DNA from: an uncultured Gammaproteobacteria bacterium | GTDB taxonomy: Bacteria > Patescibacteriota > Patescibacteriia > UBA9570 > CAZNEH01 | DNA: 60,897 bases | Direction: 5' to 3' | Assembly (NCBI GenBank): GCA_964572175.1 | Contig: CAZNEH010000003.1 | Coordinates: 7,488 to 68,384 of the forward strand | Shown: positions 2,000 through 28,659 of the stretch, in pieces | How positions within the stretch are numbered: the stretch's first letter is position 1 | How the letters are laid out: every line of letters begins with the position of its first letter | Translations under genes and position numbers: made by a program | Notes under the pieces: model-generated | The model's input: only the letters and a program-made list of their open reading frames with translations | Told to the model about the DNA's origin: nothing | Database searches by the model: none

Positions 2000-2144
2000 A
2001 TAGTTGTGTTGAGACGAGGCATGCCTCGTCTTTACTTATTTTTTTGATTAATACAATACCAGCTAACGATTTTGTAGTTATTTGTAATTTTAATTTAAAG
2101 TTTATTTAAAGGTGTAAAACGCTTTTTAAGAATTGGTATTACTC

Positions 2145-2173
2145 ATCTTAATATAGATTGCTATTTGTGTCAA
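2145..2173 (-). promoter_or_regulatory. sigma70-type promoter for greA
   Basis: Minus strand TTGACA (2168-2173), 17 nt spacer, TAAGAT (2145-2150). It lies directly downstream of the cassette terminator and implies a greA leader of about 140 nt. Confidence 0.5.
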
Positions 2174-2181
2174 CCCCTAAT

Positions 2182-2229
2182 AAAAAAAGCGCCCAGGCCA
2201 AGTATCGAAGTACGAGGCGAGGGCTTGGT
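2182..2229 (-). terminator. intrinsic terminator of GC-rich cassette 1c
   Basis: GC-rich imperfect hairpin (GCCCTCGCC...GGCCTGGGC on the minus strand) followed by T7. Near-identical copy at 2924-2974. Confidence 0.6.
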
Positions 2230-2865
2230 CTAGGGGTGGCTGCCGTAGAGGGTCTGGATATTGATTCCTCGGCGTTCGGGGTACAGGAGCCAGATGTGGC
2301 GGATGACCTGGCGGCTGACCGGGTTGGATTCTTCGATCCGGGGGTGGTAGCTCACCAGCTTGACCCAGGCTTGTTCTCCGTCGCGAACTAGCTCTGGAGC
2401 TTCGGCGAAGACTCGGTGCTGGCCGTCTGGACCACGGTGGGTGGTCATGGGGAAGACGCGGTGAGCCATCTGGATGAACTGGCAGGCTCGCCACAGGCCG
2501 GGGTTGACATCGATGGATCCAGTTGTGTCCTTGTCATCGATGTGGTAGTTGATGCCCTGGTGATCTTGGGAAATCTGCTCGATCTGGCGGCGAAGACGGC
2601 GGATGCCCGAGGATCCGGTAGGGCCAGCCAGGACCAGGGTGGTCTGGTTGGGTTCGGTCTCGAAGCTGACGACCTGGTAGTCGGGGTGGCACTGGACCAC
2701 GACGTCGGCGGCCATGTAGTAGTCGCGCTTGAAGTTCCAGGGGTCTTCGGGGGAGACTCGGTGCCAGGAGCCGGTGAAGACGATGGTGACCAGGGTGAGA
2801 CCACTTTCGGACTGAAGAGTCTCGGGCTGGTTGGGAATGCGGATGGAACGAACGATGTAGGGCAT
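2230..2865 (-). CDS. GC-rich cassette protein of unknown family, paralog A (211 aa)
   Basis: Start moved to ATG 2865 (MPYIVRSIRIPNQ), 4 nt after AAGGAGG. The longer track ORF (to 2943) would read through its own promoter. It shares the blocks HRVFPMTTHRGPD.QHRVF and LVSYHP.IE..NPVSRQ with 2975-3622. No family recognised. Confidence 0.75.
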   Translation of the reverse strand: MPYIVRSIRIPNQPETLQSESGLTLVTIVFTGSWHRVSPEDPWNFKRDYYMAADVVVQCHPDYQVVSFETEPNQTTLVLAGPTGSSGIRRLRRQIEQISQDHQGINYHIDDKDTTGSIDVNPGLWRACQFIQMAHRVFPMTTHRGPDGQHRVFAEAPELVRDGEQAWVKLVSYHPRIEESNPVSRQVIRHIWLLYPERRGINIQTLYGSHP

Positions 2866-2891
2866 GAAGCCTCCTTGTGGGTTGTGGTCAT

Positions 2892-2919
2892 ACCTTACTA
2901 TAAATAATAATAATGTCAA
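2892..2919 (-). promoter_or_regulatory. promoter of cassette 1c
   Basis: Minus strand TTGACA (2914-2919), 16 nt spacer, TAAGGT (2892-2897). An AT-rich stretch between two GC-rich ORFs. Confidence 0.6.
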
Positions 2920-2923
2920 ATAT

Positions 2924-2974
2924 AAAAAAAGCGCCCAGGCCAAGTACCGTGAGGGTACGAGGCGAGGGCTTGGG
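2924..2974 (-). terminator. intrinsic terminator of cassette 1b
   Basis: Same GC hairpin plus T7 as 2182-2229. It begins right after the stop at 2975. Confidence 0.6.
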
Positions 2975-3622
2975 CTAGAAGCGACCGCTGTAGAAGGTGC
3001 GAACTTCGAACTGCATCTGATCGTGTCTGGGGGGCTCGATGAGTCTGATCTGGCGTCGGAGTTGGCGGCTGACCGGGTTGGCTTTCTCGATCTGGGGGTG
3101 GTAGCTCACCAGCTCGAGGCTGACCAGGTCGGGGCGCGGCAGTTCCGGGACCTTGCTGAAGACGCGGTGTTGGGCGTCCGGACCGCGGTGCGTGGTCATG
3201 GGGAAGACGCGGTGGATCATGATGATGAACTTGGCGGCTTCCTTCAGGCCAGGGTGTTCTTCGATGGATCCGGCGTGTCTCTGTGCCTGTACCTCGGGGG
3301 TGACGCCGTCGTGATCGCGGATGATCTGGTAGACCTTTTGCTGGAAGCGTCGGAGGGCGGACGAATCTTGGGATTCCGTGGCCAGGACCAGGGTGGTCTG
3401 ACTAGCGTTGCCCTCGAAGCTGATGACCCGGAACTCGGGGTAGCACTGGATGACCACGTCTGCGCCAGCGTAGTAGCTGGGGTGCCAGTCCTCGGCTGAG
3501 TCGTTGGTCGGGTCGGACTGGTTGCTGGTGAAGACAACAGTGACCAGAGTCAGCATGCCGGACTCGGACTTGTAGATCTGAGGCTTGGCGGTGATGCTGA
3601 GGGAGTGCGTGACGGTGGGCAT
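2975..3622 (-). CDS. GC-rich cassette protein of unknown family, paralog B (215 aa)
   Basis: Start moved to ATG 3622 (MPTVTHSLSITAK), 4 nt after AAGGAGG. By-eye alignment to 2230-2865 gives somewhat under half identical residues. Confidence 0.75.
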   Translation of the reverse strand: MPTVTHSLSITAKPQIYKSESGMLTLVTVVFTSNQSDPTNDSAEDWHPSYYAGADVVIQCYPEFRVISFEGNASQTTLVLATESQDSSALRRFQQKVYQIIRDHDGVTPEVQAQRHAGSIEEHPGLKEAAKFIIMIHRVFPMTTHRGPDAQHRVFSKVPELPRPDLVSLELVSYHPQIEKANPVSRQLRRQIRLIEPPRHDQMQFEVRTFYSGRF

Positions 3623-3648
3623 GGGGCCTCCTTGTAGGTTGTGATAGT

Positions 3649-3676
3649 ACCTTACTATAAATAAGAATAATGTCAA
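3649..3676 (-). promoter_or_regulatory. promoter of cassette 1b
   Basis: Minus strand TTGACA (3671-3676), 16 nt spacer, TAAGGT (3649-3654). Confidence 0.6.
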
Positions 3677-3680
3677 ATAT

Positions 3681-3730
3681 AAAAAAAGCGCCCTGGGGTT
3701 GTACCGAAGTACAGGGGTCCCAGGGACTTG
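3681..3730 (-). terminator. intrinsic terminator of cassette 1a
   Basis: Minus strand long hairpin CCCTGGGACCCCTGTAC-TTCG-GTACAACCCCAGGG followed by CGC and T7. Confidence 0.6.
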
Positions 3731-3782
3731 GGGCGCGCCAGGTGTGGCGCTAAGCGTTCGTTCTTGTTCTAGGGGTCAGCAG

Positions 3783-4970
3783 CTAGGCCGGGACCCAGAT
3801 GCCGTCGCGGACCACGATCTCCTGCTGGTCGAAGAACACGCGCTTGCCGCAGCCGCCGGGGCGGAAGTCGATCACCACGTCCACGTGCTGCTTGGAGTCG
3901 TTGTACACGCCCTCATCCTTGAGCTGCTTGATGCGGGCCTTGGCTTCCGCGCTCTCGTCGTCGCCGACGAAGGAGTAGGTGTAGCTTTCTCCGATGGCGA
4001 TGTGCAGGGTGCCGCCGACCTTCTCCACGAACAGGGGGTGCTTGAGGACGCGCTTGATGTGGGGGTTCATGCCCAGGGCGATCTCACCCAGACGATGGGA
4101 GCCCTCGTCGGTCTCGATGATCGAGGTGAGCTCGTCCATGCCCTGATCGGCCTTGTACTCCACGATCTTGCCGTCCACGAAGCGCAGGTAGATGCCCTGG
4201 ATGTCGGTGCCGGAGAAGTGGACGGGCAGGTCGACGAAGATCTCGCCTTCGACCGTGTTGGCGTCGGGGCTGGTGAAGATCTCGCCGTCGATCCAGTTCT
4301 TCTCGCCGGTGCACATGTAGCCCTTGCCCTGAGCGATGCTCATGGTGAGGGTGAGCTCGCGACCATCCGGATGCTCGGTGACGATGGTGACCTGGGAGGC
4401 CTCGTCGAAGAGCGGCTTGAGGGTCTTCTGGGGTTCGACCAGGATGTTGGGGTCCATGGTGGCTGCGGAGACCAGGAAGTCGGAGTACTCCTGAAGATCC
4501 ATGCCTTCCATGTCGGCGAAGCCCTGGGTCGGGAACAGGGTCAGAGTCCAGGGCTTGACCTTGAGGATGTCGCTGAGCCGCTTGTAGGCGGTCATGATCG
4601 CGGCAGTCCTCTCGGCCGGGAGTCCGGCGTAGAGCGAGGGGTCTTCCGAGCCCAGGACTTCGATGTACTTGTCGGCCCTCTCCCAGCGCTTGATCATGTA
4701 CTCCGGGGTTTCTTCGAGGGTCTCGAGGGGCAGGATGCGAGCGGCGGTGCCGGACCAGACGCGGGAGCGCTCCAGGTCGGGCGGGCAGAGGTAGATGTCC
4801 GGGATGCCGCCGGCTTCGAGAACCCTGTCCTGAAGGGCGCTCATCAGATCCCAGCAGCCGTATTCGCCGCGGATCATGATGACCTGGCCGGGCTCGACGC
4901 CTCCGATGCTGTGGTTGATGATGATGTCGGTCCAGGCGTTGAGGGCTTCGGGGCTGATGGTGGGCTGCAT
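3783..4970 (-). CDS. M29-family aminopeptidase (AmpS/PepS/aminopeptidase T type), GC-rich
   Basis: 395 aa. Family blocks recognised: GEIFTSP..VEGEIF, ETDEGSHRLGEIALGMN, VEKVGGTLHIAIGESY and HVDVVIDF. GGAGG lies 9 nt before ATG 4970. Confidence 0.8.
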   Translation of the reverse strand: MQPTISPEALNAWTDIIINHSIGGVEPGQVIMIRGEYGCWDLMSALQDRVLEAGGIPDIYLCPPDLERSRVWSGTAARILPLETLEETPEYMIKRWERADKYIEVLGSEDPSLYAGLPAERTAAIMTAYKRLSDILKVKPWTLTLFPTQGFADMEGMDLQEYSDFLVSAATMDPNILVEPQKTLKPLFDEASQVTIVTEHPDGRELTLTMSIAQGKGYMCTGEKNWIDGEIFTSPDANTVEGEIFVDLPVHFSGTDIQGIYLRFVDGKIVEYKADQGMDELTSIIETDEGSHRLGEIALGMNPHIKRVLKHPLFVEKVGGTLHIAIGESYTYSFVGDDESAEAKARIKQLKDEGVYNDSKQHVDVVIDFRPGGCGKRVFFDQQEIVVRDGIWVPA

Positions 4971-5066
4971 GGTGACAGGCCTCCGTTGGATGTGTCCCCC
5001 CTGAAGGAGACGGGTGGTTGAAGAACGAAAAGAGAGAGGCTCGGAAGCCTTCCTCTTTTACGCGGT

Positions 5067-5096
5067 TAGGTTATAAGAAAATGGGTATTTTGTCAA
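5067..5096 (-). promoter_or_regulatory. promoter of cassette 1a
   Basis: Minus strand TTGACA (5091-5096). The best -10 is TAACCT (5067-5072) at 18 nt. The -10 assignment is less certain than for the other cassettes. The leader is about 90 nt. Confidence 0.45.
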
Positions 5097-5100
5097 TATA

Positions 5101-5149
5101 AAAAAGCTCCCTCTCCACGGAGGTGGAGAGGGCGGGGGGAGAGGAGGGA
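5101..5149 (-). terminator. terminator after mrdA; copy A of the CCCTCTCCAC repeat
   Basis: Minus strand TCCTCTCCCCCCG-CCCTCTCCAC-CTCC-GTGGAGAGGG-AGC followed by a T-run. It matches the inverted copy at 24379-24425 at about 41 of 42 positions. Confidence 0.65.
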
Positions 5150-7093
5150 TTATCGAGTGTAATAATAATTTAGCATTTCTCGAGCAACTGGCAGGGCAGC
5201 GTCGGTACCGCCGCCAGCTTCTTCAACTAAAACAGTGATGACAATTTCAGGGCTATCGTATGGAGCAAAGCAAGTAAACCAAGAATGAGTTCGGTCTGTG
5301 CCAGGGGCTTGAGCAGTCCCGGTTTTTCCACCAGAAGAAACAGGTAAAGATTGCATCATTTGGCTAGATCCAGAAGCCACGGCTTGTCCCATTCCTTCTT
5401 TAACTACTTGGACATTATAAGAGTTAAGAAAATCTTTGTTCAAGACTTCAGGTTCATTATGCTGAACAACTTCGTTGTACTCGTTATTGATGGATCTTAA
5501 TAAGTGAGGTTTGTATAAAATTCCGCCGTTAGCAAAAACAGAAGTAGTGGCGGCAATATGTAAAGGAGTGACTAAAGCGTCACCTTGGCCAATAGCATAA
5601 TGATAAGTGTCACCGATATACCACATCTCACCTTTAACTTCTTCTTTCCATTCTTTAGTTGGTAGAAACCCGGATTTTTCACCAGGTAGGTCGATGCCTA
5701 AGGCTTGGTCAATATAAAATTCTTTAGCGTATTGATTAATTTTATCTACGCCCAGGCCTCCTTCGATCTCTCTTTCTTCTTCATTATAAATTCCACCGCC
5801 GGCAACATAAAAATAAGTGTTGACTGATTCAGCAATGGCTTTACGCACATCAGTGGCACCGTGTCCCCCGCCTTTCCAATCTGGGAACCACCAATCGCCA
5901 ATGCGAATTCCACCAGTCGAGCTAATTGTTGTAGAAGGAGTAACTTCGCCTTCTTCTAGGGCTGCGGCGGCAACGATTAATTTAAAGGTTGATCCTGGTG
6001 GATAAGTTCCACCAAAGGCGCGGTTAAAAAGAGGCTTGTTTTCATTTTCTAGTAAGGCAGAATATTCTTCTTGCGTTAAGCCTTGAATAAATTTGTTGTT
6101 ATCATAAGAAGGTAGGGTAGCGATGGTTAAAATTTCACCAGTGCGTGGGTCCATGGCGATAACTATTCCGCCTGGAGCTTGGGTTTTTTCAATATAGCTT
6201 TGTAAAGACTCAGTAGCTTTTTGCTGTAAGCCTAAGTCTAAGCCAAGAACAAGGTTTTTTCCAGGAGCTTGTTTTTTTTCAGCTACTACTTCTTTTTCCT
6301 TGCCTTGGGAGTTAACTTCGATTTGTTTTTTACCGTCTTCTCCTTTAAGGAGGTCCTCATAAGTGTATTCTAAGCCAGCTTTTCCTAAATAATCAGTCAT
6401 AAGGTATTCTCCTAGGCCTTCTTCCAGTTCTTGTTCGTCTATTTTGCCGATATAGCCCATAAATGGAGACATGCTTTGAGGATGAAGGTATTCACGAATA
6501 GCGGCTGTTTTTAGCTCGATTCCAGGCCATTCTCTGGCTGCAGAGATTAGAACTAAAGCTTGTTCATAAGGAAGTTGTTCTAAAAGAGTGTAAGTTTGAT
6601 AAGTGCTAGAAGGAACTTCGGAAATTTTTTGTTTTATTTCTTCTTTAGAGATCTTAGTGATTTGATTGATTTCAGAAATTATTATTTCTTGCTTTTGTTC
6701 GTCTGAAGGAAAATCTTGAGGAGAAATATTTAACATGAAGTTAGGAATGTTTTTTACCAATGGCTCTTGATTGCGATCGTAAATAATTCCTCGACTAGCT
6801 TTAGTAGTTTGGATGCGTAAACGGTTTTCTTCAGCTACTGCTCTATAATGATCTCCGGCTGAGATTTGTAAATAAAATAATCTAATAAATAAAATAGCTA
6901 AACAAGTAGCAATAAAAATTCCTAAGTAGTTGGCTTTTTTTAAATTAACGCCTAATCTAGAAAAACGGGCCTTAAAAGACGTTGACGAATCGATAATGTC
7001 TACTGTTTTTTTCTCATAATCTGTATTGATTTTTTCAGGACTAGATTGAGAATATATTTCAAAGGGATTTTTGGAGCTCATAACGATTAACAA
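5150..7093 (-). CDS. mrdA: penicillin-binding protein 2 (elongasome transpeptidase)
   Basis: 647 aa with an N-terminal TM anchor. Motifs: SxxK (PGSTFKL), SxN (AESVNTY) and KTG (GGKTGTA). It follows mreBCD. Confidence 0.9.
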   Translation of the reverse strand: MLIVMSSKNPFEIYSQSSPEKINTDYEKKTVDIIDSSTSFKARFSRLGVNLKKANYLGIFIATCLAILFIRLFYLQISAGDHYRAVAEENRLRIQTTKASRGIIYDRNQEPLVKNIPNFMLNISPQDFPSDEQKQEIIISEINQITKISKEEIKQKISEVPSSTYQTYTLLEQLPYEQALVLISAAREWPGIELKTAAIREYLHPQSMSPFMGYIGKIDEQELEEGLGEYLMTDYLGKAGLEYTYEDLLKGEDGKKQIEVNSQGKEKEVVAEKKQAPGKNLVLGLDLGLQQKATESLQSYIEKTQAPGGIVIAMDPRTGEILTIATLPSYDNNKFIQGLTQEEYSALLENENKPLFNRAFGGTYPPGSTFKLIVAAAALEEGEVTPSTTISSTGGIRIGDWWFPDWKGGGHGATDVRKAIAESVNTYFYVAGGGIYNEEEREIEGGLGVDKINQYAKEFYIDQALGIDLPGEKSGFLPTKEWKEEVKGEMWYIGDTYHYAIGQGDALVTPLHIAATTSVFANGGILYKPHLLRSINNEYNEVVQHNEPEVLNKDFLNSYNVQVVKEGMGQAVASGSSQMMQSLPVSSGGKTGTAQAPGTDRTHSWFTCFAPYDSPEIVITVLVEEAGGGTDAALPVAREMLNYYYTR

Positions 7094-7559
7094 CTAAGGC
7101 TAAGATAAGTATATTTATAATTAATTGCAAAATAAATTCTTTCCAAGACCAAGGAGAAAAATAATTACTTAGATTTATTAAGTAAATTATTTTAGTAGAT
7201 AAGTAAATAAATAAATTAAATAAAATTGTTCCTAAGGCAACTAGACTTAAAAAAGAAAATAAAGAATAATGAGTTAAAATATGCTTTAGTAATAAATAAG
7301 GTAAGAAGATGGCTAGAGTAAAAGCAATTAAATAAATACCAAAAGGAAATTGAGAAAATAGATCAAAGATTAGGCCAGCGCTTAAAACATAAAGAAGTAA
7401 ATAATAAGGAGAAAAAATTAATAAGAAAGCAAATAATATTATCAGAACTAAATTAAAATAACTTTGCATCCATAAGGAGTTGTTTAAAAAACTGATTTGA
7501 AAAATAATTAATCCTAAAAAAGCAAGGTATAAAAATATTTTTAGGTAAATTAGTTTCAT
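7059..7559 (-). CDS. mreD: rod shape-determining protein MreD (polytopic membrane protein)
   Basis: 166 aa and very hydrophobic. The call rests mainly on its position between mreC and mrdA. Confidence 0.6.
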   Translation of the reverse strand: MKLIYLKIFLYLAFLGLIIFQISFLNNSLWMQSYFNLVLIILFAFLLIFSPYYLLLYVLSAGLIFDLFSQFPFGIYLIAFTLAIFLPYLLLKHILTHYSLFSFLSLVALGTILFNLFIYLSTKIIYLINLSNYFSPWSWKEFILQLIINILILALVVNRYELQKSL

Positions 7560-7565
7560 ATAATC

Positions 7566-8357
7566 TTAAGAAGGAAGAATTATATTAACCACGTCTACTT
7601 GGCGTAGATCAAATAAGATGTTTAGAATTGCAGTTTGCCAAAGTTCGCCTGGAGGGTTATCTATTTTTTCTATTTCTCCGACAATCAATCCAGCTGGAAT
7701 ATTTTCTTCTAAGCCAGCAGTGACGACTATTTCTTGCTCTTGAATTTCTTCGGTTTTAGGAATTAATTCTAGGTTTAAACTAAGGCCATGTTGGCCACGA
7801 GTGATACCAGCAGCGTTTTCTTTTTCTTGGACTTTGGCAGTGAATTGGCAAAAGTTGTCTGTGGTTAATACTACGGTAGCTCTATTTTTTTCAACGCTGT
7901 CTATTTTACCGATTAAGTATCCTTTTTCAACAATAACTGCTAAGCCCTCAACTAAGCCTTGGTCAGAGCCTTGATTTATAATTAATGATTGAGAGGCTTG
8001 GTCGGTAGATTGAGCGATAATGCGAGCTGGAACAGAGTTGTATTCTTTTTCTTCAATGTACTTTAATTGTTCGTTTAATTCTTGATACTCATCAACTAAG
8101 CTTTTTAATTTATTATTTTCATTAAGAAGTTGAGTTATTCTTTGGCTTAGTTCTTTGTTTTCTTCTTTTAATTCTTCTAAATTTTGCTCTTGTTCTTTGT
8201 TGAATATTTTTTGGCTTAGATTATAAAGAGGCTGTTGAATGGGCTTGGTTACACTAAAAAATGCATTTTCAAAAGGCCCTAATAATCCAAAGTTATGAGC
8301 TAATATTAAGACTATAATTATTAATAGAACTATGATTGATGGTTTTATGAATTTCAT
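7566..8357 (-). CDS. mreC: rod shape-determining protein MreC
   Basis: 263 aa with an N-terminal TM, a coiled coil (LEELKEENKELSQRITQLLNENNKLK) and a beta-rich C-terminal domain. It lies downstream of mreB. Confidence 0.85.
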   Translation of the reverse strand: MKFIKPSIIVLLIIIVLILAHNFGLLGPFENAFFSVTKPIQQPLYNLSQKIFNKEQEQNLEELKEENKELSQRITQLLNENNKLKSLVDEYQELNEQLKYIEEKEYNSVPARIIAQSTDQASQSLIINQGSDQGLVEGLAVIVEKGYLIGKIDSVEKNRATVVLTTDNFCQFTAKVQEKENAAGITRGQHGLSLNLELIPKTEEIQEQEIVVTAGLEENIPAGLIVGEIEKIDNPPGELWQTAILNILFDLRQVDVVNIILPS

Positions 8358-8363
8358 CAGTCT

Positions 8364-9419
8364 TTAAATTTCTATTCTATCGTCGGCAGTGCTTAAAACA
8401 AATAAGTCTTTAAGGTTTTCTAAGTCTTCTAAAATAAATCCAGTTCCTCGAGCTACCGTGGTTAGAGGGTCGTCAGCAGCGCGGACTGGAATATTAGTCG
8501 CTTGAGCAATTTTTTTATCTAAGCCTCGAAGCATGGCTCCGCCACCAGAAAGAATAATACCTCGTTCGTAAATATCAGAAACTAATTCAGGAGGGGTTTC
8601 TTCTAAGGTAGATTTAATATTATCTATAAATAAACTAACAGTTTTAGAAATAGCCTCGTTAACGTGTTCACTATTAATGACCACTTCTCTAGGAAGACCA
8701 GTGTTCATGTCTCTGCCTTTTACCTTGGCTTCTAGATTATCTTCTTTAGTGGCAGAGCTCATTTTAATTTTAAGTTCTTCAGCAGTATGTTCACCTAATA
8801 AGAAATTAAATTCTTCTCGGCAGTAATTAATAATATTTTGGTTTAGTTCGTCTCCGGCAACTCTTAAGGATCTCCAGGTAACGATTCCACCTAAAGAGAT
8901 AACTGCAATTTCAGTGCTGCCTCCGCCAATATCAACAACCATATTACCAGTAGAGTCTTGGATTGGTAAGCGGGCGCCAATAGCGGCAGCCATTGGTTCT
9001 TCGATTAAGTAGACTTTTCGAGCTCCAGCATTCATGGCCGCATCTTCTACGGCTTTTTTTTCTACTTCAGTAACGCCCATGGGAATAGCAATAACAATTC
9101 GAGGACGAGGTAAAATAGTAAAAGTTTCTCTATGAACCTTATCTATGAAATACTTAAGCATTTTTTCAGTAACTTCGAAATCAGAAACAACCCCTTGATG
9201 CAAGGGTCTGGAAGTGGTGATGTGTGGCGGGGTTTTACCAATCATGCGTTTGGCTTGTTGACCCACAGCTAAGATTTGATCAGTGTTGTTATTAAGAGCA
9301 ACTACTGAAGGTTCGTTAATAACAATGCCCCGGTCTTTTACATAAACCAGTGTATTAGCAGTTCCTAAATCTATTCCTAAATCTTTGGAAAATTTTCCTA
9401 AGATATTATTAAATACCAT
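8364..9419 (-). CDS. mreB: rod shape-determining protein MreB
   Basis: 351 aa actin-fold ATPase with motifs DLGTANTLVY and VVDIGGGSTEIAVISLGG. Confidence 0.95.
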   Translation of the reverse strand: MVFNNILGKFSKDLGIDLGTANTLVYVKDRGIVINEPSVVALNNNTDQILAVGQQAKRMIGKTPPHITTSRPLHQGVVSDFEVTEKMLKYFIDKVHRETFTILPRPRIVIAIPMGVTEVEKKAVEDAAMNAGARKVYLIEEPMAAAIGARLPIQDSTGNMVVDIGGGSTEIAVISLGGIVTWRSLRVAGDELNQNIINYCREEFNFLLGEHTAEELKIKMSSATKEDNLEAKVKGRDMNTGLPREVVINSEHVNEAISKTVSLFIDNIKSTLEETPPELVSDIYERGIILSGGGAMLRGLDKKIAQATNIPVRAADDPLTTVARGTGFILEDLENLKDLFVLSTADDRIEI

Positions 9420-9425
9420 TTGAAG

Positions 9426-11120
9426 TTACTTTTTTACCTTATTAATAACTTCCTCCAAAGTGATAAGCTCGGTTTCATCTTCTTTACGAAGCTTGTATTC
9501 GATTTTATCACCAGTTTTTTTAGACACGACTAAGCGTACGGGAATTCCGATGAGGTCGGCATCATTAAATTTGGTGCCAGCGCTTTCGTCCCGGTCGTCA
9601 TATAGTACCTCAATCCCCTGTTTTTGTAAAGAGGCGTAAATTTCGTCTGATTGAGTACTTTCTTTGTTCAGGTTAATTAGGTGGACTTGGAAAGGAGCGA
9701 TTTCTTCTGGCCAGGCCATTCCATTGTCGTCACTGTGTTTTTCAATAATAGTCGCTAGGGTTCGACCAACACCAATTCCATAGCAGCCCATATAGTAGAA
9801 TTTTTCTTTACCATCTTTGTCCATGAAAGTAGCTTTCATTTTTTCACTGTAATATTCTCCTAATTGAAATATATTACCCACTTCTATCCCCTTACCTTCT
9901 TTTAATTTTTCACCACTTTCAGAAGTATATTCGTTTTTAGCTAAGGCAATATCTCCTTCGATATTAGGAGTATAATCTCTATCTATGTTTACGTTTAATA
10001 AATCAGTATTTTTTTTATTAGCTCCGCCATAAGCGTTTTTAATAGTTTGTAGAGAATCATCAGCGACGATTTGTACTTTTTTGTCCATGTTTACTGGAGA
10101 GATAAATCCAGGTTCACTTCCTAATTCGCGGATTTCTTCATCAGTAGCATGTCTTAAACTATTAGCGCCAGTTAAATTTTGAAGCTTAGTTTCATTAACT
10201 TCAAAATCACCACGAATAACAGCTAAAATGAATTTACCTTTGTCGTCAACAAACATAACGTCTTTGATTTGCTGCCATAAAGGCATATCATGAAACTTTA
10301 CTCCATCCTCCATACTATTTCCCCGTTTAGCTTCTACTTCTTTAAGTTCTTGCTCTGCTTCATCTAGGTTTTTTTCTTCTTTGGTAAATTTAGCGACATC
10401 TTCATGAGCGGCATACTTACCATCTTCGGAAATTAAGAATTTGCTTTCTCCAGCTTCACTTTCTACAACAAATTCATGAGAATAATCTCCGCCAATATAG
10501 CCATTGTCTGCTTCCACGACTACTGTTTCTAATCCTAGGCGAGAAAAGATACGAGTGTAAGTTTCCCACATTTTTTGATACTCAGTTTTAAAGTCTTCTT
10601 CGTCAACATGAAAAGAGTAAGCGTCTTTCATTAAGAATTCTCTAACTCGAAGCAATCCTCCACGAGCTCTCATTTCGTCTCTAAATTTTTGAGAAAACTG
10701 ATAAATGTTAAAAGGAAGGTTTTTATAACTTAAATTAAAGTCTCGAACAACATCAACCATCATTTCTTCAGCAGTTCCGCCTAAAGCAAATTCTGATTCA
10801 GAACGATCTTTAACAGTCATTAATTCAAAGCCTACAGAATCTGTTCGGCTAGTTTCTTTCCAAAGTTCAATAGGATGAAGAACAGGAGTGATCATTTTAT
10901 GAGCGCCAGTAGAATCCATTTCTTGTTCAATAACTTTTACTATTTTGTCTCGAACTTTGATTCCAAGTGGTAAATAATAATATCTTCCAGCTGCGGATTC
11001 ACGAATAAAGCCAGCTTGGTATAAAAGTTTATGACTAGTTAATTTTATGTCTTTAGGTATTGTTTTTGTTGTTTGAGCAAACAGATTTGATTGTTTCATA
11101 TGTTTAAAATAATTTTCCAA
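9426..11120 (-). CDS. proS: proline--tRNA ligase
   Basis: 564 aa bacterial-type class II ProRS (HKLLYQAGFIRESAAGRYYYLPLG). The true start may be MKQSNLF at 11099. Confidence 0.9.
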   Translation of the reverse strand: MENYFKHMKQSNLFAQTTKTIPKDIKLTSHKLLYQAGFIRESAAGRYYYLPLGIKVRDKIVKVIEQEMDSTGAHKMITPVLHPIELWKETSRTDSVGFELMTVKDRSESEFALGGTAEEMMVDVVRDFNLSYKNLPFNIYQFSQKFRDEMRARGGLLRVREFLMKDAYSFHVDEEDFKTEYQKMWETYTRIFSRLGLETVVVEADNGYIGGDYSHEFVVESEAGESKFLISEDGKYAAHEDVAKFTKEEKNLDEAEQELKEVEAKRGNSMEDGVKFHDMPLWQQIKDVMFVDDKGKFILAVIRGDFEVNETKLQNLTGANSLRHATDEEIRELGSEPGFISPVNMDKKVQIVADDSLQTIKNAYGGANKKNTDLLNVNIDRDYTPNIEGDIALAKNEYTSESGEKLKEGKGIEVGNIFQLGEYYSEKMKATFMDKDGKEKFYYMGCYGIGVGRTLATIIEKHSDDNGMAWPEEIAPFQVHLINLNKESTQSDEIYASLQKQGIEVLYDDRDESAGTKFNDADLIGIPVRLVVSKKTGDKIEYKLRKEDETELITLEEVINKVKK

Positions 11121-12198
11121 TGTCTCTAAACGTGACCAGGATTAGTAAGATAATTAATAAACCGAATCCTAGATTGTGCGCCAGGTTTTCAATTTTTTGA
11201 CTAACTGGTTTACGTTTTATTTTTTCGATGATTAAAAAGATTACACGGCCGCCGTCCAGGGCCGGAAATGGTAGGAAATTAAAGATGGCTAAGTTCAAAG
11301 ATAATAAAGCAGTAAATTGTAAGACATAGATAAAGCCCATTTGAGCGGCTTGACTAGTAAGAACGGCGATGCCAACAGGACCGGCAATGCTTTCAGAAAC
11401 TTGGCCAGCAAAGATTAAGTCTTTTAATAAATAGTAAAAGGCTTGAACAATATAAACCAACAAGACAAAAGTCTTTTTAGTTCCTTCATAAATAGCTAGA
11501 TACCAAGGGTAAGAAACAGTTCCAGTTTGAGATAATAATACTCCCATGCCCTTTTTATCTGTTTCCTCTAAAGTTTCTAGGGTTAAAGCAGTGTTTATTT
11601 GTTCAGCGTTTCTTTTGACAGTTAAATTGATTTCTGAATTTTCTAAAGAGTTATTGTAAGTGTTTAATTCTTCTATATTAGAAAAAGTTTGGTTATTAAT
11701 GCCTAGAATAATATCTCCAGGTTTAAGCTTGGCTTGAGAAGCTGGAGAGTCTTCTAAGATGTAGGAAATCATTAATTGCTCCTCACTAATTCTAGCTTTT
11801 GAAGAGATGTCTTCAGTGGAGTCTGGTAAACCGATCATGTAGCCCAGGCTTAAAAGCATGGCGCATAAAATAATATTCATGACTACGCCAGCAGATAGAA
11901 TTACAAAGCGTTTCCAAATAGCTTGACCAATAAAACTGTCTTGGCCGTCTTCTGCTTCTCCTTCTTGGTCTCCGCCAACAACGCCTTTGATTTTACAAAA
12001 GCCGCCTAAAGGAATCCAGTTTAAAGAATATAAAGTCTTGCCTTTTTTTAGGCCGAATATTCTAGGAGGATAGCCAAAACCAAACTCCTCTACCCCGACT
12101 TTAAAAAGACGGGATGCTCCAAAGTGTCCGAGTTCATGAACAAATATGCATAGGCCAAGAACAAGAACTAAAACGATTATAGTAATGAGTATAGTCAT
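11104..12198 (-). CDS. rseP: RIP site-2 metalloprotease RseP (M50)
   Basis: 364 aa with HELGHF near the N-terminus, a central PDZ-like segment and multiple TM helices. Confidence 0.85.
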   Translation of the reverse strand: MTILITIIVLVLVLGLCIFVHELGHFGASRLFKVGVEEFGFGYPPRIFGLKKGKTLYSLNWIPLGGFCKIKGVVGGDQEGEAEDGQDSFIGQAIWKRFVILSAGVVMNIILCAMLLSLGYMIGLPDSTEDISSKARISEEQLMISYILEDSPASQAKLKPGDIILGINNQTFSNIEELNTYNNSLENSEINLTVKRNAEQINTALTLETLEETDKKGMGVLLSQTGTVSYPWYLAIYEGTKKTFVLLVYIVQAFYYLLKDLIFAGQVSESIAGPVGIAVLTSQAAQMGFIYVLQFTALLSLNLAIFNFLPFPALDGGRVIFLIIEKIKRKPVSQKIENLAHNLGFGLLIILLILVTFRDIGKLF

Positions 12199-12209
12199 GT
12201 AATATTTTT

Positions 12210-12746
12210 TTAAACAGTCATTATTTCTTTTTCTTTATTTTCCCCTATTTCGTCTATCTCTTTAGTGGTGGTGTTAACCTGTTCTTGAACATCTTTTTCT
12301 TGAGTATGATAATCGTCTTCAGAGATGGCGCCTTCTTTTTCTTGAGCTTTTAATTTTTTAAGAGTATCTTCTCTAAGTCGGCGAATAGCAATACGTGATT
12401 CTTCTACTTTTTCTTTCATAATTTTTACTAGTTCTACTCTTTTTTCTTCAGTTAAAGCAGGTAGAGTTAAACGAATTACGTCTTGGTCTACTATGGGGTT
12501 AATTCCTAAGTTAGATTTTTCAATGGCGGTAGAAATAGCTTTTAACTGAGTCTTGTCCCAAGGCTGAATAACTAGAGTCTTTGGTTCTGGAGCGCTAATA
12601 CTGGCTAATTGATTTAAAGGGGTCATTACTCCGTAAGCGTCAACCATAATATTTTCTACTAAAGTAGGAGTAGCTCGATTAGTTCTTAGGTTGGCGAGCT
12701 CTTTTTGTAAGTGCTCAATAATTTTATTGATTTCTTCTTGATTCAT
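12210..12746 (-). CDS. frr: ribosome recycling factor
   Basis: 178 aa with typical RRF sequence (LANLRTNRATPTLVENIMVDAYG...). Confidence 0.95.
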   Translation of the reverse strand: MNQEEINKIIEHLQKELANLRTNRATPTLVENIMVDAYGVMTPLNQLASISAPEPKTLVIQPWDKTQLKAISTAIEKSNLGINPIVDQDVIRLTLPALTEEKRVELVKIMKEKVEESRIAIRRLREDTLKKLKAQEKEGAISEDDYHTQEKDVQEQVNTTTKEIDEIGENKEKEIMTV

Positions 12747-12752
12747 ATGTTT

Positions 12753-13940
12753 TTAACTAGGAAAGAAACTATTACCCTCTTCATCAAAGGTTTTAGTTCC
12801 TACGTAAATAACAGCGGGGTTAACTGGGTCAACGTACATAACTTTAACTTCTCTTTGAGAAGGGAAAGTTTCTAAGACGCGCCAAGTTATTCCACCGTCG
12901 TCACTTTTATGGATTAAATTTTTAATTGAAAAATATATTACCTCTGGCTTACTAGGAGTGACTAGAATATTTTTAATTTCAGTATTAGTACTATCTTCAG
13001 CCGCGATCAAAGTGTTGATTTGATGCCAATTATTTCCTAAATCATTACTTCGCATTAGGCCTTGTTTGGTGGCCATTAAGATAGTTGAAGAATTATTAGG
13101 GTCTAGGAAAAAGTCGTTAACTATTTTTCCTTGAGGCCATAATTCTCGGTGTTCTTTAGTGTCTAGTGGTTCATCCCAGTTGGCTCCGGCGTCTGTGGTT
13201 CTGTATAGCTTACCCTCTTCGTCTCTGACAAAAATAATTCGAGAATCTAGGGCACTCATTTGAGCGTCTTTGGGATAATCTTCAGTGGTATGGATTAGGT
13301 GCCAGTTGGCTCCAGCGTCTTCTGATTTTAAGACAGTTTTTACAGAAGTAAAAGCATAGATAGTATTAGGGTTGTAATGGTCGATTAAGAGCTTCATGAT
13401 TAATCCACCTTGGGTTTCGGTGTAAACATTTTCCCAAGTTTGACCACCGTCATAGCTTTTATAAATAATATTTTGTGAACAAGTATAAATAGTGTCTGGT
13501 TCTTGAGAGTTAATAACTAGATCTACGAAAAGACCGCTTTGGAAATTAGTTGGATACCAGGAATCTGCGGCATTATCTGTTTTGTAAACACCGTTTTCGT
13601 AAGTGGTAGTATATAAAACAGCGGTTTTAGAAAAGTCTTCGTTTTCAGTAGTGATTATTTCTTGAGGATGAAAAGCAATTCGTCTAACATTGGCTGCGGA
13701 GATGCTGAGGGTTTTTCGACCATCTTGACCAACATAAGTTTTTTGCTCCCAGTTTTCTCCATAGTCTTCAGACATAAAAATTCCGCCATCAACATAGCTA
13801 GTTCCGCAAGCTTGACCAGTCAATAATACAGCAAAGATTATTAAGATAAGAGGGAGAATTTTTTTTCCCGATTTTATCTTTGATAAAATCGAGGATCCTC
13901 GATCGCTTTGCGATCGGGACATATTATTGATTTTAATCAT
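12753..13940 (-). CDS. membrane-anchored BNR/Asp-box repeat beta-propeller protein (Ycf48/sortilin-like)
   Basis: 395 aa with an N-terminal TM. Repeated S/T-x-D-x-G-x-x-W boxes: SYDGGQTWENV, SEDAGANWHLI, TTDAGANWDEP, SNDLGNNWHQI and SDDGGITWRVL. Confidence 0.65.
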   Translation of the reverse strand: MIKINNMSRSQSDRGSSILSKIKSGKKILPLILIIFAVLLTGQACGTSYVDGGIFMSEDYGENWEQKTYVGQDGRKTLSISAANVRRIAFHPQEIITTENEDFSKTAVLYTTTYENGVYKTDNAADSWYPTNFQSGLFVDLVINSQEPDTIYTCSQNIIYKSYDGGQTWENVYTETQGGLIMKLLIDHYNPNTIYAFTSVKTVLKSEDAGANWHLIHTTEDYPKDAQMSALDSRIIFVRDEEGKLYRTTDAGANWDEPLDTKEHRELWPQGKIVNDFFLDPNNSSTILMATKQGLMRSNDLGNNWHQINTLIAAEDSTNTEIKNILVTPSKPEVIYFSIKNLIHKSDDGGITWRVLETFPSQREVKVMYVDPVNPAVIYVGTKTFDEEGNSFFPS

Positions 13941-14899
13941 ATGTTTATAATGATATTTTCTAAAATTAATTTTGGTTGAACGTTTTGTTTTAGTAATTCT
14001 TGAGCTTTTTCTATTTGATTAATTTTTTTAGTTATATTTTGGGTTTTGTTATTTGGACTTTGGATTTGATTAACAGTGTATTTTTCTAAATTGTGTTGAT
14101 TTAAAATCTGATCTCTAAGGTAGGAAGTGGCTAGGTCTAGAAGGAGGGATAATTCTTGAGAAGATTTTTTAGAACGGTGTATTTTATCGGCTAGTTTAAA
14201 TTTTTCTTTTTGTGAGCCAGATAATAAAGTATTAACAGTATCTATTTTTTCTTGGTGTTTTTTTAGGGCGTTTTTTTTGTTTAGAAATTCTACAGCTAGA
14301 CCAGGTTTACCATGGGCTAGGCGGGTAATTTTCAAAGCTTGGTCTCGATCAGTTTCGGTTTGCAGATAATCATAAATATCTTTTTGACTAACTGGTAAAA
14401 AGCGAATGATTTGGCAGCGAGAAGTGATGGTTTCTGGGATAGTAGATAAATCTTCAGCTAAAAGGACTAAAACTGTTTTTTGAGCGGGTTCTTCTAAAGT
14501 TTTTAAAAGGGCGTTGCTAGCGCTTAGAGTTAAGCTAGAAGCTTGTTTGATTAAGACTACTTTGTAGCCCTGGTGTAAGGATTTTTTTTGTAACTTGGCA
14601 ATTAACTCTCGGACTTGCTTGATAGAAGTGTTCTTTTTGTCTGCTTCTGGCTCTAACCAATGAACGTCTGGGTGGATGTTTTTGCGTATTTGAGCGCAGT
14701 TTTGGCAACGCCCACAAGGACGAGCCTTGGTTTCAGATACACAAAACAAGCTAAAAAGAAAACTTTCGGCAATTTTCTTTTTACCTAGATGTTCAGGCCC
14801 ATAAAATAAATAGGCGTGATTTATTTTACCATTTTCTATGGAGTTTTGCAAATATTGAACTTGGCGCTGATGGCCAATAATGTCCCACTGGTATTGCAT
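13937..14899 (-). CDS. holB: DNA polymerase III delta' subunit
   Basis: HAYLFYGPEHLGKK plus a zinc module (CGRCQNCAQI). Start set at MQYQWDIIGHQ (14899). The track ORF extends to 14932 but would overlap the small ORF 14904-14999. Confidence 0.8.
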   Translation of the reverse strand: MQYQWDIIGHQRQVQYLQNSIENGKINHAYLFYGPEHLGKKKIAESFLFSLFCVSETKARPCGRCQNCAQIRKNIHPDVHWLEPEADKKNTSIKQVRELIAKLQKKSLHQGYKVVLIKQASSLTLSASNALLKTLEEPAQKTVLVLLAEDLSTIPETITSRCQIIRFLPVSQKDIYDYLQTETDRDQALKITRLAHGKPGLAVEFLNKKNALKKHQEKIDTVNTLLSGSQKEKFKLADKIHRSKKSSQELSLLLDLATSYLRDQILNQHNLEKYTVNQIQSPNNKTQNITKKINQIEKAQELLKQNVQPKLILENIIINI

Positions 14900-14903
14900 G
14901 AAG

Positions 14904-14999
14904 TTATAAAACGCCGAATTGGGTAAGACCAAAGATGATGGCGGCGCTAATGATTAGAAATATACCTAACCCTATTATCCCCTTGTTTAAATGTTTCAT
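14904..14999 (-). CDS. candidate 31-aa small membrane protein (below track cutoff)
   Basis: Own translation: MKHLNKGIIGLGIFLIISAAIIFGLTQFGVL, a single TM helix. Its ATG overlaps the TGA stop of the upstream GT4 gene (ATGA coupling). It ends 5 nt before the preferred holB start. Confidence 0.35.
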   Translation of the reverse strand: MKHLNKGIIGLGIFLIISAAIIFGLTQFGVL

Positions 15000-16084
15000 A
15001 TATTTTTGTTAATTATTTTCCACGTCTCTTGAGCGCATTTTGACCAAGAGAATTTTTTAATTTGAGCAAAGCCTTTTTCTTTTAAGGCAGTATTATTAAT
15101 ATTTTTGGTAATAGTCTGGGCCATGTCTTCGATGCTGTAGGGGTCAAAGTAGAAGGCGGCTTGGCCAGCTACTTCTTTTAACGGAGGGATATGAGAGCAA
15201 ATTACTGGGGTACCAGCAGACATGGCTTCTAAAACTGGGATACCAAAGCCTTCATATAAAGAAGGAAAGATGAATGCTTCTGCTTGATTCATTATAGCAT
15301 TAATATCTTCTTGGTCTACATAGCCGGGTTCTATTATTCTGTTTTCTAGATTATGTTTTTTAATATTGGCTTGAACTTGTTCATACTTATAGCCCTCTCC
15401 TCCGACTAAGACTAGGTTGTATTCTTTGGGTAGTAAAGCAAAAGCATTGATTAACCGAGGAATATTTTTCTTTTCTTCTTTACGGCCAATAAATAATAAA
15501 TAAGGTTTTTTAATATTGTATTTATTTAATATTTCAGGGTTGGGTTGAGGTAGGGGGAAGAAATCTTTAGAAGTAAAGCCATTGTGAACAAAAGAAATTT
15601 TAGATTCTGGAATTTTGTAAAATTTAATTATTTCGTTTTTGGAGAATTCAGAAACAGAGATCAGGTGATGAGCTTTTTTAATGGCGTAGTTCATGGCCCA
15701 ACGGTGATAACCTAGTTCTTTGTCGCTATATAATTCTTTATGAGTAGCAAAGCCAATATCATGAGCGACTAGAATTGTTTTTTTGGGATGAATTAATGGA
15801 ATAGTGTGAGCAGGGATAAATAAAACATCAGGACGTTTGAAAAGCATTTCTAAAGAAAGGCGTATTTGAGTCCAGAGAAATTTTGGAGGCCAGTTTAAAA
15901 CTTTTGATTGCCAATTACTAGGTAAGTCCTCTAGCCCGCCCTGCAAAGGTTCTTTGGAATACAAAATCACCCTGATGTTATCAGGGATAATTTTTTTGAG
16001 TTCTTGAATAAGGTGGTAAGAGTACCACTCAGTACCAGTTTTTTGGATTTTATTGGCGCGGGAAGCGTCTATTCCAATAACCAT
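14996..16084 (-). CDS. glycosyltransferase family 4 (GT-B)
   Basis: 362 aa with an EX7E-type C-terminal motif (PSLYEGFGIPVLEAMSAGTPVI). Confidence 0.85.
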   Translation of the reverse strand: MVIGIDASRANKIQKTGTEWYSYHLIQELKKIIPDNIRVILYSKEPLQGGLEDLPSNWQSKVLNWPPKFLWTQIRLSLEMLFKRPDVLFIPAHTIPLIHPKKTILVAHDIGFATHKELYSDKELGYHRWAMNYAIKKAHHLISVSEFSKNEIIKFYKIPESKISFVHNGFTSKDFFPLPQPNPEILNKYNIKKPYLLFIGRKEEKKNIPRLINAFALLPKEYNLVLVGGEGYKYEQVQANIKKHNLENRIIEPGYVDQEDINAIMNQAEAFIFPSLYEGFGIPVLEAMSAGTPVICSHIPPLKEVAGQAAFYFDPYSIEDMAQTITKNINNTALKEKGFAQIKKFSWSKCAQETWKIINKNI

Positions 16085-17091
16085 TATCTATTTTCCATTA
16101 CAGATCGTTTATAGGACTCAAGGTTTTCTAAGGCAACCCCAGTTCCGCGAACAACGTTAAGCATAGGATCGTTAGCTAGGTAAGCAGGAACTTGAATAGC
16201 TTGGCTTAAAAGCTCATCTAGATTTCTAAGTTGACCAGTACCCCCAGAAATAACCATTCCTTTATCAATAACATCAGCAGCTAATTCAGGAGGGGTTTCT
16301 TGTAATACGTCTTTGGCGGCTTGAATAATTCCTTGAAGTTCGTCGTGAATGGCTTCGGTTACATCTTCAGAGCTAACAGTAACTGTTCGAGGGAGGCCAG
16401 TAATAACATCACGACCACGAACATCCATATTTAAGCTTTCTTCTAAAGGAAGGGCGGAGCCAATTTTAATTTTAAGTTCTTCTGCAGAGCGTTCACCAAT
16501 AGAGAGGCTATATTTTTTACGAACAAATTCAGCAATGGCATGATCAAATTTTGTTCCACCGATACGAACAGAAGTATTAGCTACGATTCCACCAAGGGAG
16601 ATAACCGCGATTTCAGTTGTTCCTCCGCCAATTTCAATAATCATGTGGCCAGATGGAGAGCCAATAGGAATGCCAGCTCCAATAGCAGAAGCAACGGGCT
16701 GTTTAATAATAAAGGCAGCTTTAGCGCCAGCTTGGATAGTAGCGTCGATAACAGCCCTGCGTTCAGTAGAGGTAATTCCAGCTGGAACGGCAATCATAAC
16801 TTCTGGACGGAATAGTCTAATTCCGCCTAAAGCTTTATTAATGAAGTAGCGCAGCATGGATTCTGTGGTGCGGTAATCGGCAATAACACCGTCTTTTAAT
16901 GGGCGGCGAGCAACGATGGTGTCGGGAGTTCGGCCAAGCATGTCGCGGGCCTCGTTTCCAACGGCTAAAACTTTTTTATCTTGTAAGGATATAGCAACAA
17001 CTGATGGTTCATTAATATGAATCCCTTTTTTTGGTACATAAACAAGCGTGTTTACAGTGCCTAGATCAATTCCGATTTGCTTAACAAACAT
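16084..17091 (-). CDS. second MreB/Mbl-like actin homolog
   Basis: 335 aa with motifs IDLGTVNTLVY and IIEIGGGTTEIAVISLGG. Paralog of 8364-9419. Confidence 0.9.
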   Translation of the reverse strand: MFVKQIGIDLGTVNTLVYVPKKGIHINEPSVVAISLQDKKVLAVGNEARDMLGRTPDTIVARRPLKDGVIADYRTTESMLRYFINKALGGIRLFRPEVMIAVPAGITSTERRAVIDATIQAGAKAAFIIKQPVASAIGAGIPIGSPSGHMIIEIGGGTTEIAVISLGGIVANTSVRIGGTKFDHAIAEFVRKKYSLSIGERSAEELKIKIGSALPLEESLNMDVRGRDVITGLPRTVTVSSEDVTEAIHDELQGIIQAAKDVLQETPPELAADVIDKGMVISGGTGQLRNLDELLSQAIQVPAYLANDPMLNVVRGTGVALENLESYKRSVMENR

Positions 17092-28586: not shown

Positions 28587-28624
28587 TTTTTAGCTAATTT
28601 TAGGCTATTTTAAGGTGTTAATAT

Positions 28625-28653: not shown

Positions 28654-28659
28654 TTATGT

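Follow-up and report, generated by a model that had tools for sequence, protein, structure and literature searches.

The closest described counterparts of the element treated here are the "morons" of phages (HK97/HK022 type), which have been reviewed in PMC3594210, and the islands of Patescibacteria, in which horizontal gene transfer and genomic islands are reported to be frequent (PMC12455944). We analyzed a stretch of 60,897 nucleotides (nt) of contig CAZNEH010000003.1, hereafter called the window, which belongs to the chromosome of an AT-rich, ultra-small member of Patescibacteria (the Candidate Phyla Radiation, or CPR). The subject is a patch rich in guanine plus cytosine (GC) at window positions 2176-5100, which contains three minus-strand genes: one for an M29 aminopeptidase and two for paralogous proteins, named B and A. 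We consider it likely that the patch is a strain-variable, moron-like stack of insulated accessory cassettes inserted at a conserved housekeeping junction, the one between mrdA and greA.

With about 60% GC the patch stands out from the window, which elsewhere mostly has 33-38% GC outside a handful of GC-rich patches; across ~2150-5150 the GC fraction climbs from ~0.36 to 0.58-0.65. Compared with its flanks, the patch has a GC fraction of 0.60 versus ~0.36 and a GC fraction at third codon positions (GC3) of 0.79-0.92 versus 0.29 in greA and mrdA. GC1/GC2/GC3 of its minus-strand frames is ~0.61/0.40/0.79-0.92. Both flanking genes were identified by Pfam, GreA by PF03449/PF01272 and MrdA, a class B penicillin-binding protein, by PF03717/PF00905. 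Beyond mrdA there is an open reading frame (ORF) of 166 amino acids (aa) without Pfam match in the position of MreD, followed by MreC, MreB, ProS, RseP, Frr and HolB; lysS, read from the sequence, lies beyond greA. The nearest relatives of MrdA, with 40-49% identity, are found in metagenome-assembled genomes (MAGs) of Patescibacteria and Parcubacteria. In nine of the related loci greA follows 90-270 nt after mrdA, in four more the gap is ~1-5 kb, and none of the related mrdA-greA loci encodes M29, A or B. The spacers of the related MAGs hold a GTTGACA(C/T) promoter resembling the site at 2173-2145 of the window. Because of the short distance between mrdA and greA in nine related loci, the patch is recognized as an insertion into a conserved, normally short spacer: ~2.9 kb, together with the mrdA terminator, are placed between the mrdA stop codon and the ancestral greA promoter. 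The insert and its borders comprise the following features, given in the direction of the minus strand; promoters and terminators are predicted.

5099..5132, minus strand: mrdA terminator, hairpin CCCTCTCCAC-CTCC-GTGGAGAGGG with a T6 run, directly after the mrdA stop; -20.0 kcal/mol, z -3.9
5068..5096, minus strand: M29 promoter TTGACA-17-TAACCT, upstream edge of the patch, homologous to promoters at 23096 and 24376
4971..5067, minus strand: GC-rich 5' leader of M29; stem-loop at its 5' end, GGAGG at 4984-4980, 9 nt ahead of the ATG
3783..4970, minus strand: M29 gene, metallo-aminopeptidase of 395 aa (PF02073); GC3 0.92
3679..3728, minus strand: intrinsic terminator of M29, UUCG-loop hairpin followed by U7; -20.4 kcal/mol
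3649..3676, minus strand: promoter of paralog B, TTGACA-16-TAAGGT, starting 4 nt past the T-run
2975..3622, minus strand: paralog B, 215 aa, no family; Shine-Dalgarno (SD) sequence AAGGAGG at 3633-3627, ATG at 3622; GC3 0.84
2922..2970, minus strand: terminator of paralog B, hairpin followed by U7; -21.9 kcal/mol, z -3.8
2892..2919, minus strand: promoter of paralog A, TTGACA-16-TAAGGT
2230..2865, minus strand: paralog A, 211 aa, no family; ATG at 2865, preceded by the SD sequence AAGGAGG (2876-2870); GC3 0.79
2180..2225, minus strand: terminator of paralog A, hairpin followed by U7, downstream edge of the patch; -15.2 kcal/mol, z -2.4
2145..2173, minus strand: ancestral greA promoter GTTGACAC-17-TAAGAT in host DNA outside the insert; 10/12 matches in the promoter scan

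The original prediction had described three co-oriented minus-strand genes between mrdA and greA, an M29 aminopeptidase and two paralogs that share conserved blocks and match no nameable family, each with its own promoter, SD sequence, hairpin and T7. This description proved accurate, with the ORFs at the coordinates listed above, and by sequence the genes do not form a classical operon. The promoter scan found four promoter-like sites in the region versus 1.2 expected. AAGGAGG or GGAGG sites precede the ATG by 4-9 nt in all three genes, and the hairpins behind the genes reach -15 to -22 kcal/mol, each with U7. The following -35 hexamer begins 3-4 nt beyond each T-run, and the 3' half of the M29 terminator is homologous to the terminators of A and B. 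The fold of the M29 leader, with z -1.0, was not significantly better than that of shuffled sequences, and the patch gave no match to Rfam. A search of metagenomes with the terminator-promoter junction returned one chance match, a contig (L028) carrying PpiC and FabH genes, which was discarded. By sequence, the patch consists of three self-contained cassettes, in each of which a host-type TTGACA promoter is followed by an SD-bearing leader, a coding sequence and an intrinsic terminator, so that each gene would be transcribed alone. The insertion as a whole would be transcriptionally insulated, as mrdA would gain a terminator and greA would keep its ancestral promoter.

Like a moron, the patch is extra DNA in comparison with syntenic relatives, deviates in GC from its neighbors and consists of units that each have, at the sequence level, their own promoter and terminator. 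It differs from morons in its position in a housekeeping chromosome between mreBCD-mrdA and greA, with no phage genes nearby, and in its composition of three units in a row, two of which are a tandem duplication. No phage or prophage location was found, the neighbors being lysS, greA, mrdA, mreDCB, proS, rseP, frr and holB, and no relatives turned up in viral contigs; because a phage context is absent, the patch is not a moron in the formal sense. With the genomic islands of Patescibacteria (PMC12455944) it has in common that it is an insertion of deviating composition into a streamlined CPR genome, that it encodes accessory functions and, presumably, that it varies between strains. Unlike these islands, it is tiny (3 kb), is not associated with an integrase, a tRNA or a prophage, and holds separately insulated genes that are GC-rich in an AT-rich host and whose products mostly have no detected homolog. 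The likeness to integron cassettes lies in compact, single-gene units which are arranged head to tail and end in an imperfect inverted repeat, and in a content that varies at a fixed site. However, every cassette of the patch is equipped with a promoter, neither intI (in the ORFs scanned) nor attI nor Pc was detected, and the 3' hairpins look like ordinary GC-rich intrinsic terminators with T-runs rather than recognizable attC sites. Neither integrase nor transposase was present among the ~34 window ORFs scanned, the window holds no tRNA, and the only similarity between the flanks of the patch is the generic T-run+TTGACA junction. Since every gene has its own promoter and an integrase is missing from the ORFs scanned, the patch belongs neither to the integrons nor to the classical integrative islands.

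The abrupt change in GC could also be taken as the mark of an assembly chimera or a contaminant, a reading that we regard as extremely improbable, as we do the related one that the plus-strand ORFs are the real genes. Logan contig SRR8146440_876 is identical to window positions 2013-15021 over 13,009 nt (100%), and a second Logan contig (L030) is identical to positions 30513-44956 over 14,444 nt (100%). The NCBI contig, 68,384 nt long, and SRR8146440_876 agree at 100% across both patch junctions, which are precise host-type terminator/promoter joints. Because the Logan contigs match the window at 100%, a chimera, a contamination and a synthetic origin of the patch are excluded; the last was rejected also because two natural assemblies carry the same DNA. 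In an exact look-up in a collection of 15 billion proteins, GreA, MreC, MreB and the phosphoenolpyruvate (PEP)-utilizer proteins encoded in the window were present, from the NCBI contig and from Logan, and the true-frame proteins of M29, A, B and two orphan ORFs further along the window (222 and 311 aa) were absent. Two plus-strand ORFs lying antisense to the patch genes, 3699-5021 (440 aa) and 2864-3499 (211 aa), were present in the collection. The gene table of SRR8146440_876 contains four plus-strand calls spanning 2158..5021, none with a Pfam match:

2167-2391, plus strand: antisense shadow ORF, publicly called
2437-2907, plus strand: antisense shadow ORF, publicly called
2864-3499, plus strand: antisense shadow ORF, publicly called
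3699-5021, plus strand: antisense shadow ORF, publicly called

These frames have a GC1 of 0.69-0.89 and a GC3 of 0.6, their first codon base being the third base of the true minus-strand codon. Because such a GC1 is the signature of antisense shadows, we regard the plus-strand ORFs as such. They also run through the intergenic modules that are conserved, and the frames over A do not correspond to those over B. In contrast, the minus strand carries the Pfam match (E 4e-46) and the PDB matches of M29 as well as all SD sites, ATGs, promoters and T-runs, and only on this strand are A and B colinear. The public gene calls thus evidently place all three patch genes on the wrong strand, judging by codon composition and homology.

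The ORF at 3783-4970 belongs to the M29 family. It matches PF02073 with E 4e-46 and 158.1 bits (cut-off 27), and residues 9-367 cover profile positions 4-381 of 406, which is a full-length match. Among the known M29 peptidases, AmpS (1ZJC), aminopeptidase T (2AYI) and PepS (4ICQ), it was aligned with AmpS (E 1.8e-21), where EIFTSPD corresponds to EVFTAPD, GEIAL to GEVAL, HIAIG to HLAIG and HVD to HVD; the motifs EIFTSPD, GEIALG, HIAIG and HVDVV are conserved. The aligned acidic and His motifs are the metal-ligand motifs of the AmpS and PepS structures. The first cassette encodes a predicted metallo-aminopeptidase in which the family motifs are intact and which probably scavenges peptides in the cytosol. 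Its difference from the characterized members is its place in a divergent branch of the family, to which this 395-aa protein is assigned by sequence. Among 1442 homologs at E<=1e-10 the closest, P0001, is 67% identical; M29 and P0001 are each 53-57% identical to the other top matches, which are ~67% identical among themselves. No M29 relatives were found in viral contigs. P0001 is encoded on a 1.6-kb contig (L001, SRR22387842) as a GC-rich gene with AT-rich DNA downstream, which shows that this M29 branch occurs as a GC-rich gene amid AT-rich DNA in at least two organisms. Ahead of P0001, at L001 1-194, the 3' end of a tRNA (GGTTCGATCCCGC...CCA) is followed by a terminator of small size and by the promoter TTGACG-17-TACTGT. 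No A/B-like ORF or sequence was found on L001, where 228 nt downstream of P0001 are available. A more distant homolog, P0002, adjoins genes for an S41 peptidase and a DUF1846 protein.

The proteins A and B are 46% identical (E 1e-64) and colinear over their full length, and the blocks HRVFPMTTHRGPD.QHRVF and LVSYHP.IE..NPVSRQ are invariant between them. The whole units repeat with a period of ~742-757 nt, and A and B are a tandem duplication of an entire unit including promoter and terminator. The module from T-run to ATG, comprising promoter and leader, is 88% identical between A and B (manual count) and the terminators are ~80-90% identical, compared with 64% nucleotide identity of the coding sequences. 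Because the non-coding modules are better conserved than the coding sequences, the promoters and terminators of A and B are argued to be functional, or else homogenized. The second and third cassettes would be an old duplication of one gene for a soluble protein of ~24 kDa. Both proteins are hydrophilic and acidic to neutral (isoelectric point ~6.5-6.8, grand average of hydropathy -0.5), and reading the sequences by eye revealed no signal peptide or transmembrane segment. The N-terminal half is variable and the C-terminal block is conserved and rich in His, Asp and Glu; the invariant residues include H135, H143, D147, H150, H174 and E178 (A numbering). A metal site in this block is plausible but conjectural.

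The Nei-Gojobori ratio of non-synonymous to synonymous substitution rates (dN/dS) between A and B is 0.83. This value might be read as relaxed or positive selection; we rejected this reading because the extreme codon bias brings synonymous sites near saturation, with 29 synonymous differences observed versus 37.7 expected under independent codon choice. Within the block HRVFPMTTHRGPDxQHRVF five of the 19 codons differ synonymously and only one change is non-synonymous; the block is under purifying selection.

Searches for relatives of A and B gave no family match in Pfam, NCBIfam, PHROGs or PADLOC. A match to BK_channel_a (E 0.02) was dismissed as spurious, and the single weak match of B in PHROGs (E 0.35), to a family of unknown function, was uninformative. 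A word-index search of 5.8 billion clusters found nothing, and an exhaustive HMMER profile search of 1.84 billion representatives returned only long repeat proteins with many weak stretches, which were rejected as artefacts on reading. Scans with back-translated motifs through 185,579 species genomes, the JGI metagenomes and IMG/VR yielded nothing; these scans are independent of gene calls and require exact motifs of 7-9 residues, so that distant relatives may be missed. Neither tblastn against phages and plasmids nor a comparison of the A/B sequence profile with the PDB gave a match, and the window has no third A/B paralog. Two AlphaFold2 attempts on the two-sequence alignment reached mean predicted local distance difference test (pLDDT) values of 48.6 and 41.1, which is low confidence, and weakly suggest a beta-alpha-beta-beta-alpha-beta topology for residues 23-116. 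With the first model Foldseek matched only ferredoxin-like folds, generic or designed de novo, and transposases of the IS200 type, at template modeling (TM) scores of 0.25-0.37; these matches were rejected, since an HUH motif is absent from A and B and confidence in the model is low. Alignment by hhalign to the 222-aa and 311-aa orphan ORFs gave nothing. By sequence comparison, A and B appear to form a family without detectable relatives. Annotation accounts in part for the lack of homologs in protein databases, because gene calling would go wrong in the same manner for relatives in AT-rich genomes.

The original prediction had taken the linkage, by guilt by association only, as a hint of a functional trio, for example for peptide processing with a partner or inhibitor. 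In this interpretation A and B would assist M29 as partners or chaperones, inhibit it or process its substrates, and their linkage would be selected. Adjacency and shared orientation of the three genes, the homologous terminators of M29, B and A, and a common codon style with ~0.6 C at third positions (C3) are in line with it, and the His/Asp/Glu block of A and B could bind metal, as M29 does. Nevertheless, we think a trio quite unlikely and found it unsupported. Profile and fold searches connected A and B neither with a family unrelated to peptidases nor with M29 (hhalign probability 0.2%). The proposed co-occurrence with M29 in other genomes cannot be shown, because no homolog of A or B was found in any search; it should be noted that genes of this kind are wrongly called in protein databases. 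Within the 228 nt available, the closest M29 relative lacks an A/B neighbor, other M29 genes lie beside S41 peptidase, DUF1846 and similar genes, and the available comparative evidence thus speaks against an obligatory module of M29 with A and B. Insulation of each gene by its own terminator and promoter is the opposite of a co-regulated design, and the same architecture is shared by unrelated orphan genes elsewhere in the window. The clustering of the three genes is better explained by a shared insertion history and shared regulatory "parts" than by function.

At least seven further units of the window have the same layout, in which a GC-rich body stands between a TTGACA promoter and a hairpin with T-run:

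23096-22755: cassette with a membrane ORF of ~70 aa
28624-29040, plus strand: cassette with no ORF >20 aa, TTGACA-17-TATCAT promoter and terminator around ~380 nt of GC-richer sequence
~36925-37305: cassette with an ORF of ~85 aa
40932-40760, minus strand: cassette without ORF, predicted transcript of ~140 nt, z -2.8
40451-40085, minus strand: cassette with a 90-aa ORF at 40129-40401, own promoter and terminator
52964-53822, plus strand: cassette with a 222-aa ORF at 53076-53744 (GC3 0.93), TTGACA promoter and strong terminator
53899-54955, plus strand: cassette with a 311-aa ORF at 53955-54890 (GC3 0.66), TTGACA promoter and strong terminator

Including the patch between mrdA and greA, the GC-rich cassettes sum to ~6.9 kb, or 11% of the window. 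The cassette ORFs tested with Pfam, among them those of 222 and 311 aa, belong to no family, and the 222-aa protein has no homolog. For the unit at 28624-29040 the minimum free energy has a z of -2.3; it matches no Rfam family and has a sub-threshold antisense match to RefA9 (E 0.05), and it is a candidate for a novel non-coding RNA. In the compound patch at 40085-40932, a plus-strand Cys/His-rich ORF of 67 aa (40503-40706) with the SD sequence GAGGAGG is divergent to the 90-aa ORF. The Logan call at L030 4506-4883 (125 aa, from TTG 40451) uses a reading frame that differs from that of the 90-aa ORF. In related Patescibacteria MAGs, two loci (L010 16490-17856 and L017 359-3057) also have GC-rich patches, at least 0.15 above the median GC; one encodes an ATPase of the Opp-type ATP-binding cassette (ABC) family, another a 180-aa ORF.

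Intergenic repeats of the REP (repetitive extragenic palindromic) and Correia type supply terminators and promoters. The hairpin on the mrdA side and its TTGACAAAAyCCC promoter are similar to these elements in that the window contains three copies of them, which lie in both orientations. The REP-like hairpin CCCTCTCCAC-N4-GTGGAGAGGG with its tail CCTCTCCCC has copies at 5109-5132, 23151-23174 and 24396-24419, versus none expected; the copy at 24.4k is inverted, and each copy adjoins a related promoter TTGACAAAAyCCC...TA(A/G)GAT. The window family differs in having only three copies and no known terminal inverted repeats or transposase, so that its mobility is putative. The M29 promoter and the hairpin preceding it thus belong to small repeat families which also occur beside AT-rich host genes at 23.1k and 24.4k, and because of these copies the regulatory "parts" of the cassettes are of host type. 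A further repeat, GT(A/G)CTGTTGTGATCTAGCTTGTCTAGATC with the palindrome GATCTAG-N5-CTAGATC inside, has three copies of 91-100% identity (30514-30547, 51856-51889 and 53860-53893). The copy at 53860 stops 5-6 nt upstream of a -35 hexamer, and contig L030 breaks off exactly at the one at 30514; the sequence may be an operator or a repeat element.

Evidence for strain variability comes from the alaS-infA site. There, contig L029 of a close relative (ENA ERZ24794671) encodes an identical InfA protein, and its promoter and leader DNA is ~95-98% identical to that of the window. Upstream of AATATTTACCTAA, however, L029 (1-235) and the window (~36905-37305) have different GC-rich cassettes: that of L029 comes with a separate TTGACA promoter and with an ORF unrelated to that of the window, which starts with MPRFSTKRFVRQDD... 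in place of MTVSGKKPSPKDL... in the window. Homology resumes at AATATTTACCTAA, beside the -35 hexamer of the cassette. Because near-identical infA DNA is thus accompanied by a different cassette, one cassette can take the place of another at a fixed site in close strains. We infer that the patch at mrdA-greA varies between strains as well, and that it is probably a strain-specific GC-rich islet which was acquired horizontally.

Replacement of a cassette between close relatives would also be expected if A and B were fast-diversifying conflict genes, with roles in defense, anti-defense, toxin/immunity or host interaction. Such a role would account for cassettes that vary between strains, for the orphan status and for an N-terminal half that is variable; dN is at least as high as dS in the N-terminal and middle segments, the C-terminal blocks being conserved, and the products of most GC-rich cassettes are small orphan proteins, including some of the membrane. 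On the other hand, no match to PADLOC, PHROGs or Pfam was obtained, dN/dS is unreliable given that extreme codon bias nearly saturates the synonymous sites, and A and B are paralogs and not a complementary pair, without the two-gene layout of a toxin/antitoxin system. We therefore consider conflict genes an unlikely identity for A and B, and any biochemical role assigned to them would be conjectural.

Several points weigh against an insulated, horizontally acquired and strain-variable insert. No donor was identified, M29 being only 53-57% identical to the homologs of the Acidobacteria and Deltaproteobacteria type. GC-rich Patescibacteria were considered as donors and are unsupported by codon style, as their C3 and G3 are about equal, compared with a C3 of 0.6 and a G3 of 0.2-0.3 in the cassettes; the host genes, with 0.21 versus 0.07, likewise have more C than G at third positions. 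Because the 67% identical M29 relative on L001 is also GC-rich, beside a tRNA and AT-rich DNA, GC-richness has persisted through much divergence, unlike a simple case of recent transfer plus amelioration. Neither a mobility gene nor an att site was found that explains the movement of cassettes, nor was a clear duplication of the target. The three patch genes share some history, because the 3' half of the M29 terminator is common to those of A and B. Strain variability was shown at another cassette site; the contig of the close relative (L032, from GCA_046766275.1, ~92% identical) ends ~70 nt short of the mrdA-greA junction. Independent transcription of the three genes is a prediction from promoters and terminators.

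Some features of the neighborhood deserve mention. A perfect palindrome, AGACGAGGCATGCCTCGTCT, lies at 2012-2031 just upstream of the greA ATG, and Logan contig SRR8146440_876 (L031) begins inside it. In L032 (~100-119) the palindrome reads AGACGAATATATATTCGTCT; the stem base is retained and the upper part is altered in a compensating way, which suggests a conserved leader hairpin. Two MreB paralogs, 8364-9419 and 16084-17091, are encoded 7.7 kb apart; both match PF06723 with E<1e-130 and share DNA blocks of 75-77% identity (repeat families D15 and D16). Further along the window, five paralogous minus-strand genes stand in a row at 51894-60797 and share conserved 3' blocks (repeat families D1 and D2). 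Two of the five were examined with Pfam, and both end in a PEP-utilizing mobile domain (PF00391). A PPDK_N gene (50867-51838) adjoins this array, which is interrupted by the GC-rich patch at 53 kb, where 52964-54955 separates two PEP-utilizer paralogs.

In conclusion, islets of this kind are already known, as islets of horizontal gene transfer and as morons, and the practical result is a correction of annotation. The insertion, the presence of several similar insulated GC-rich cassettes and the wrong-strand annotation were not part of the original prediction; for the idea of a peptidase partner itself the result is negative. We speculate, as a possibility that we hold only tentatively, that this lineage keeps a sizeable accessory genome (~11% of the window) in the form of individually insulated GC-rich "chromosomal morons", mostly orphan genes or small RNAs, which occupy fixed intergenic sites, are swapped between close strains without a recognizable recombinase, stay GC-rich over long divergence and are missed by standard gene callers, which keeps them out of the protein databases; A and B would then be founders of a new metal-binding family in this pool. 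At present, an M29 peptidase and two real genes are publicly recorded as four antisense hypothetical proteins, and systematic errors of gene calling may affect GC-rich islets throughout AT-rich CPR genomes. If this is true, systematic mis-calling would hide a part of the accessory pool from protein-based surveys and inflate the apparent number of orphans. Small, insulated, strain-variable cassettes amid housekeeping operons suggest a way in which ultra-reduced genomes may try out foreign genes without disturbing essential transcription.

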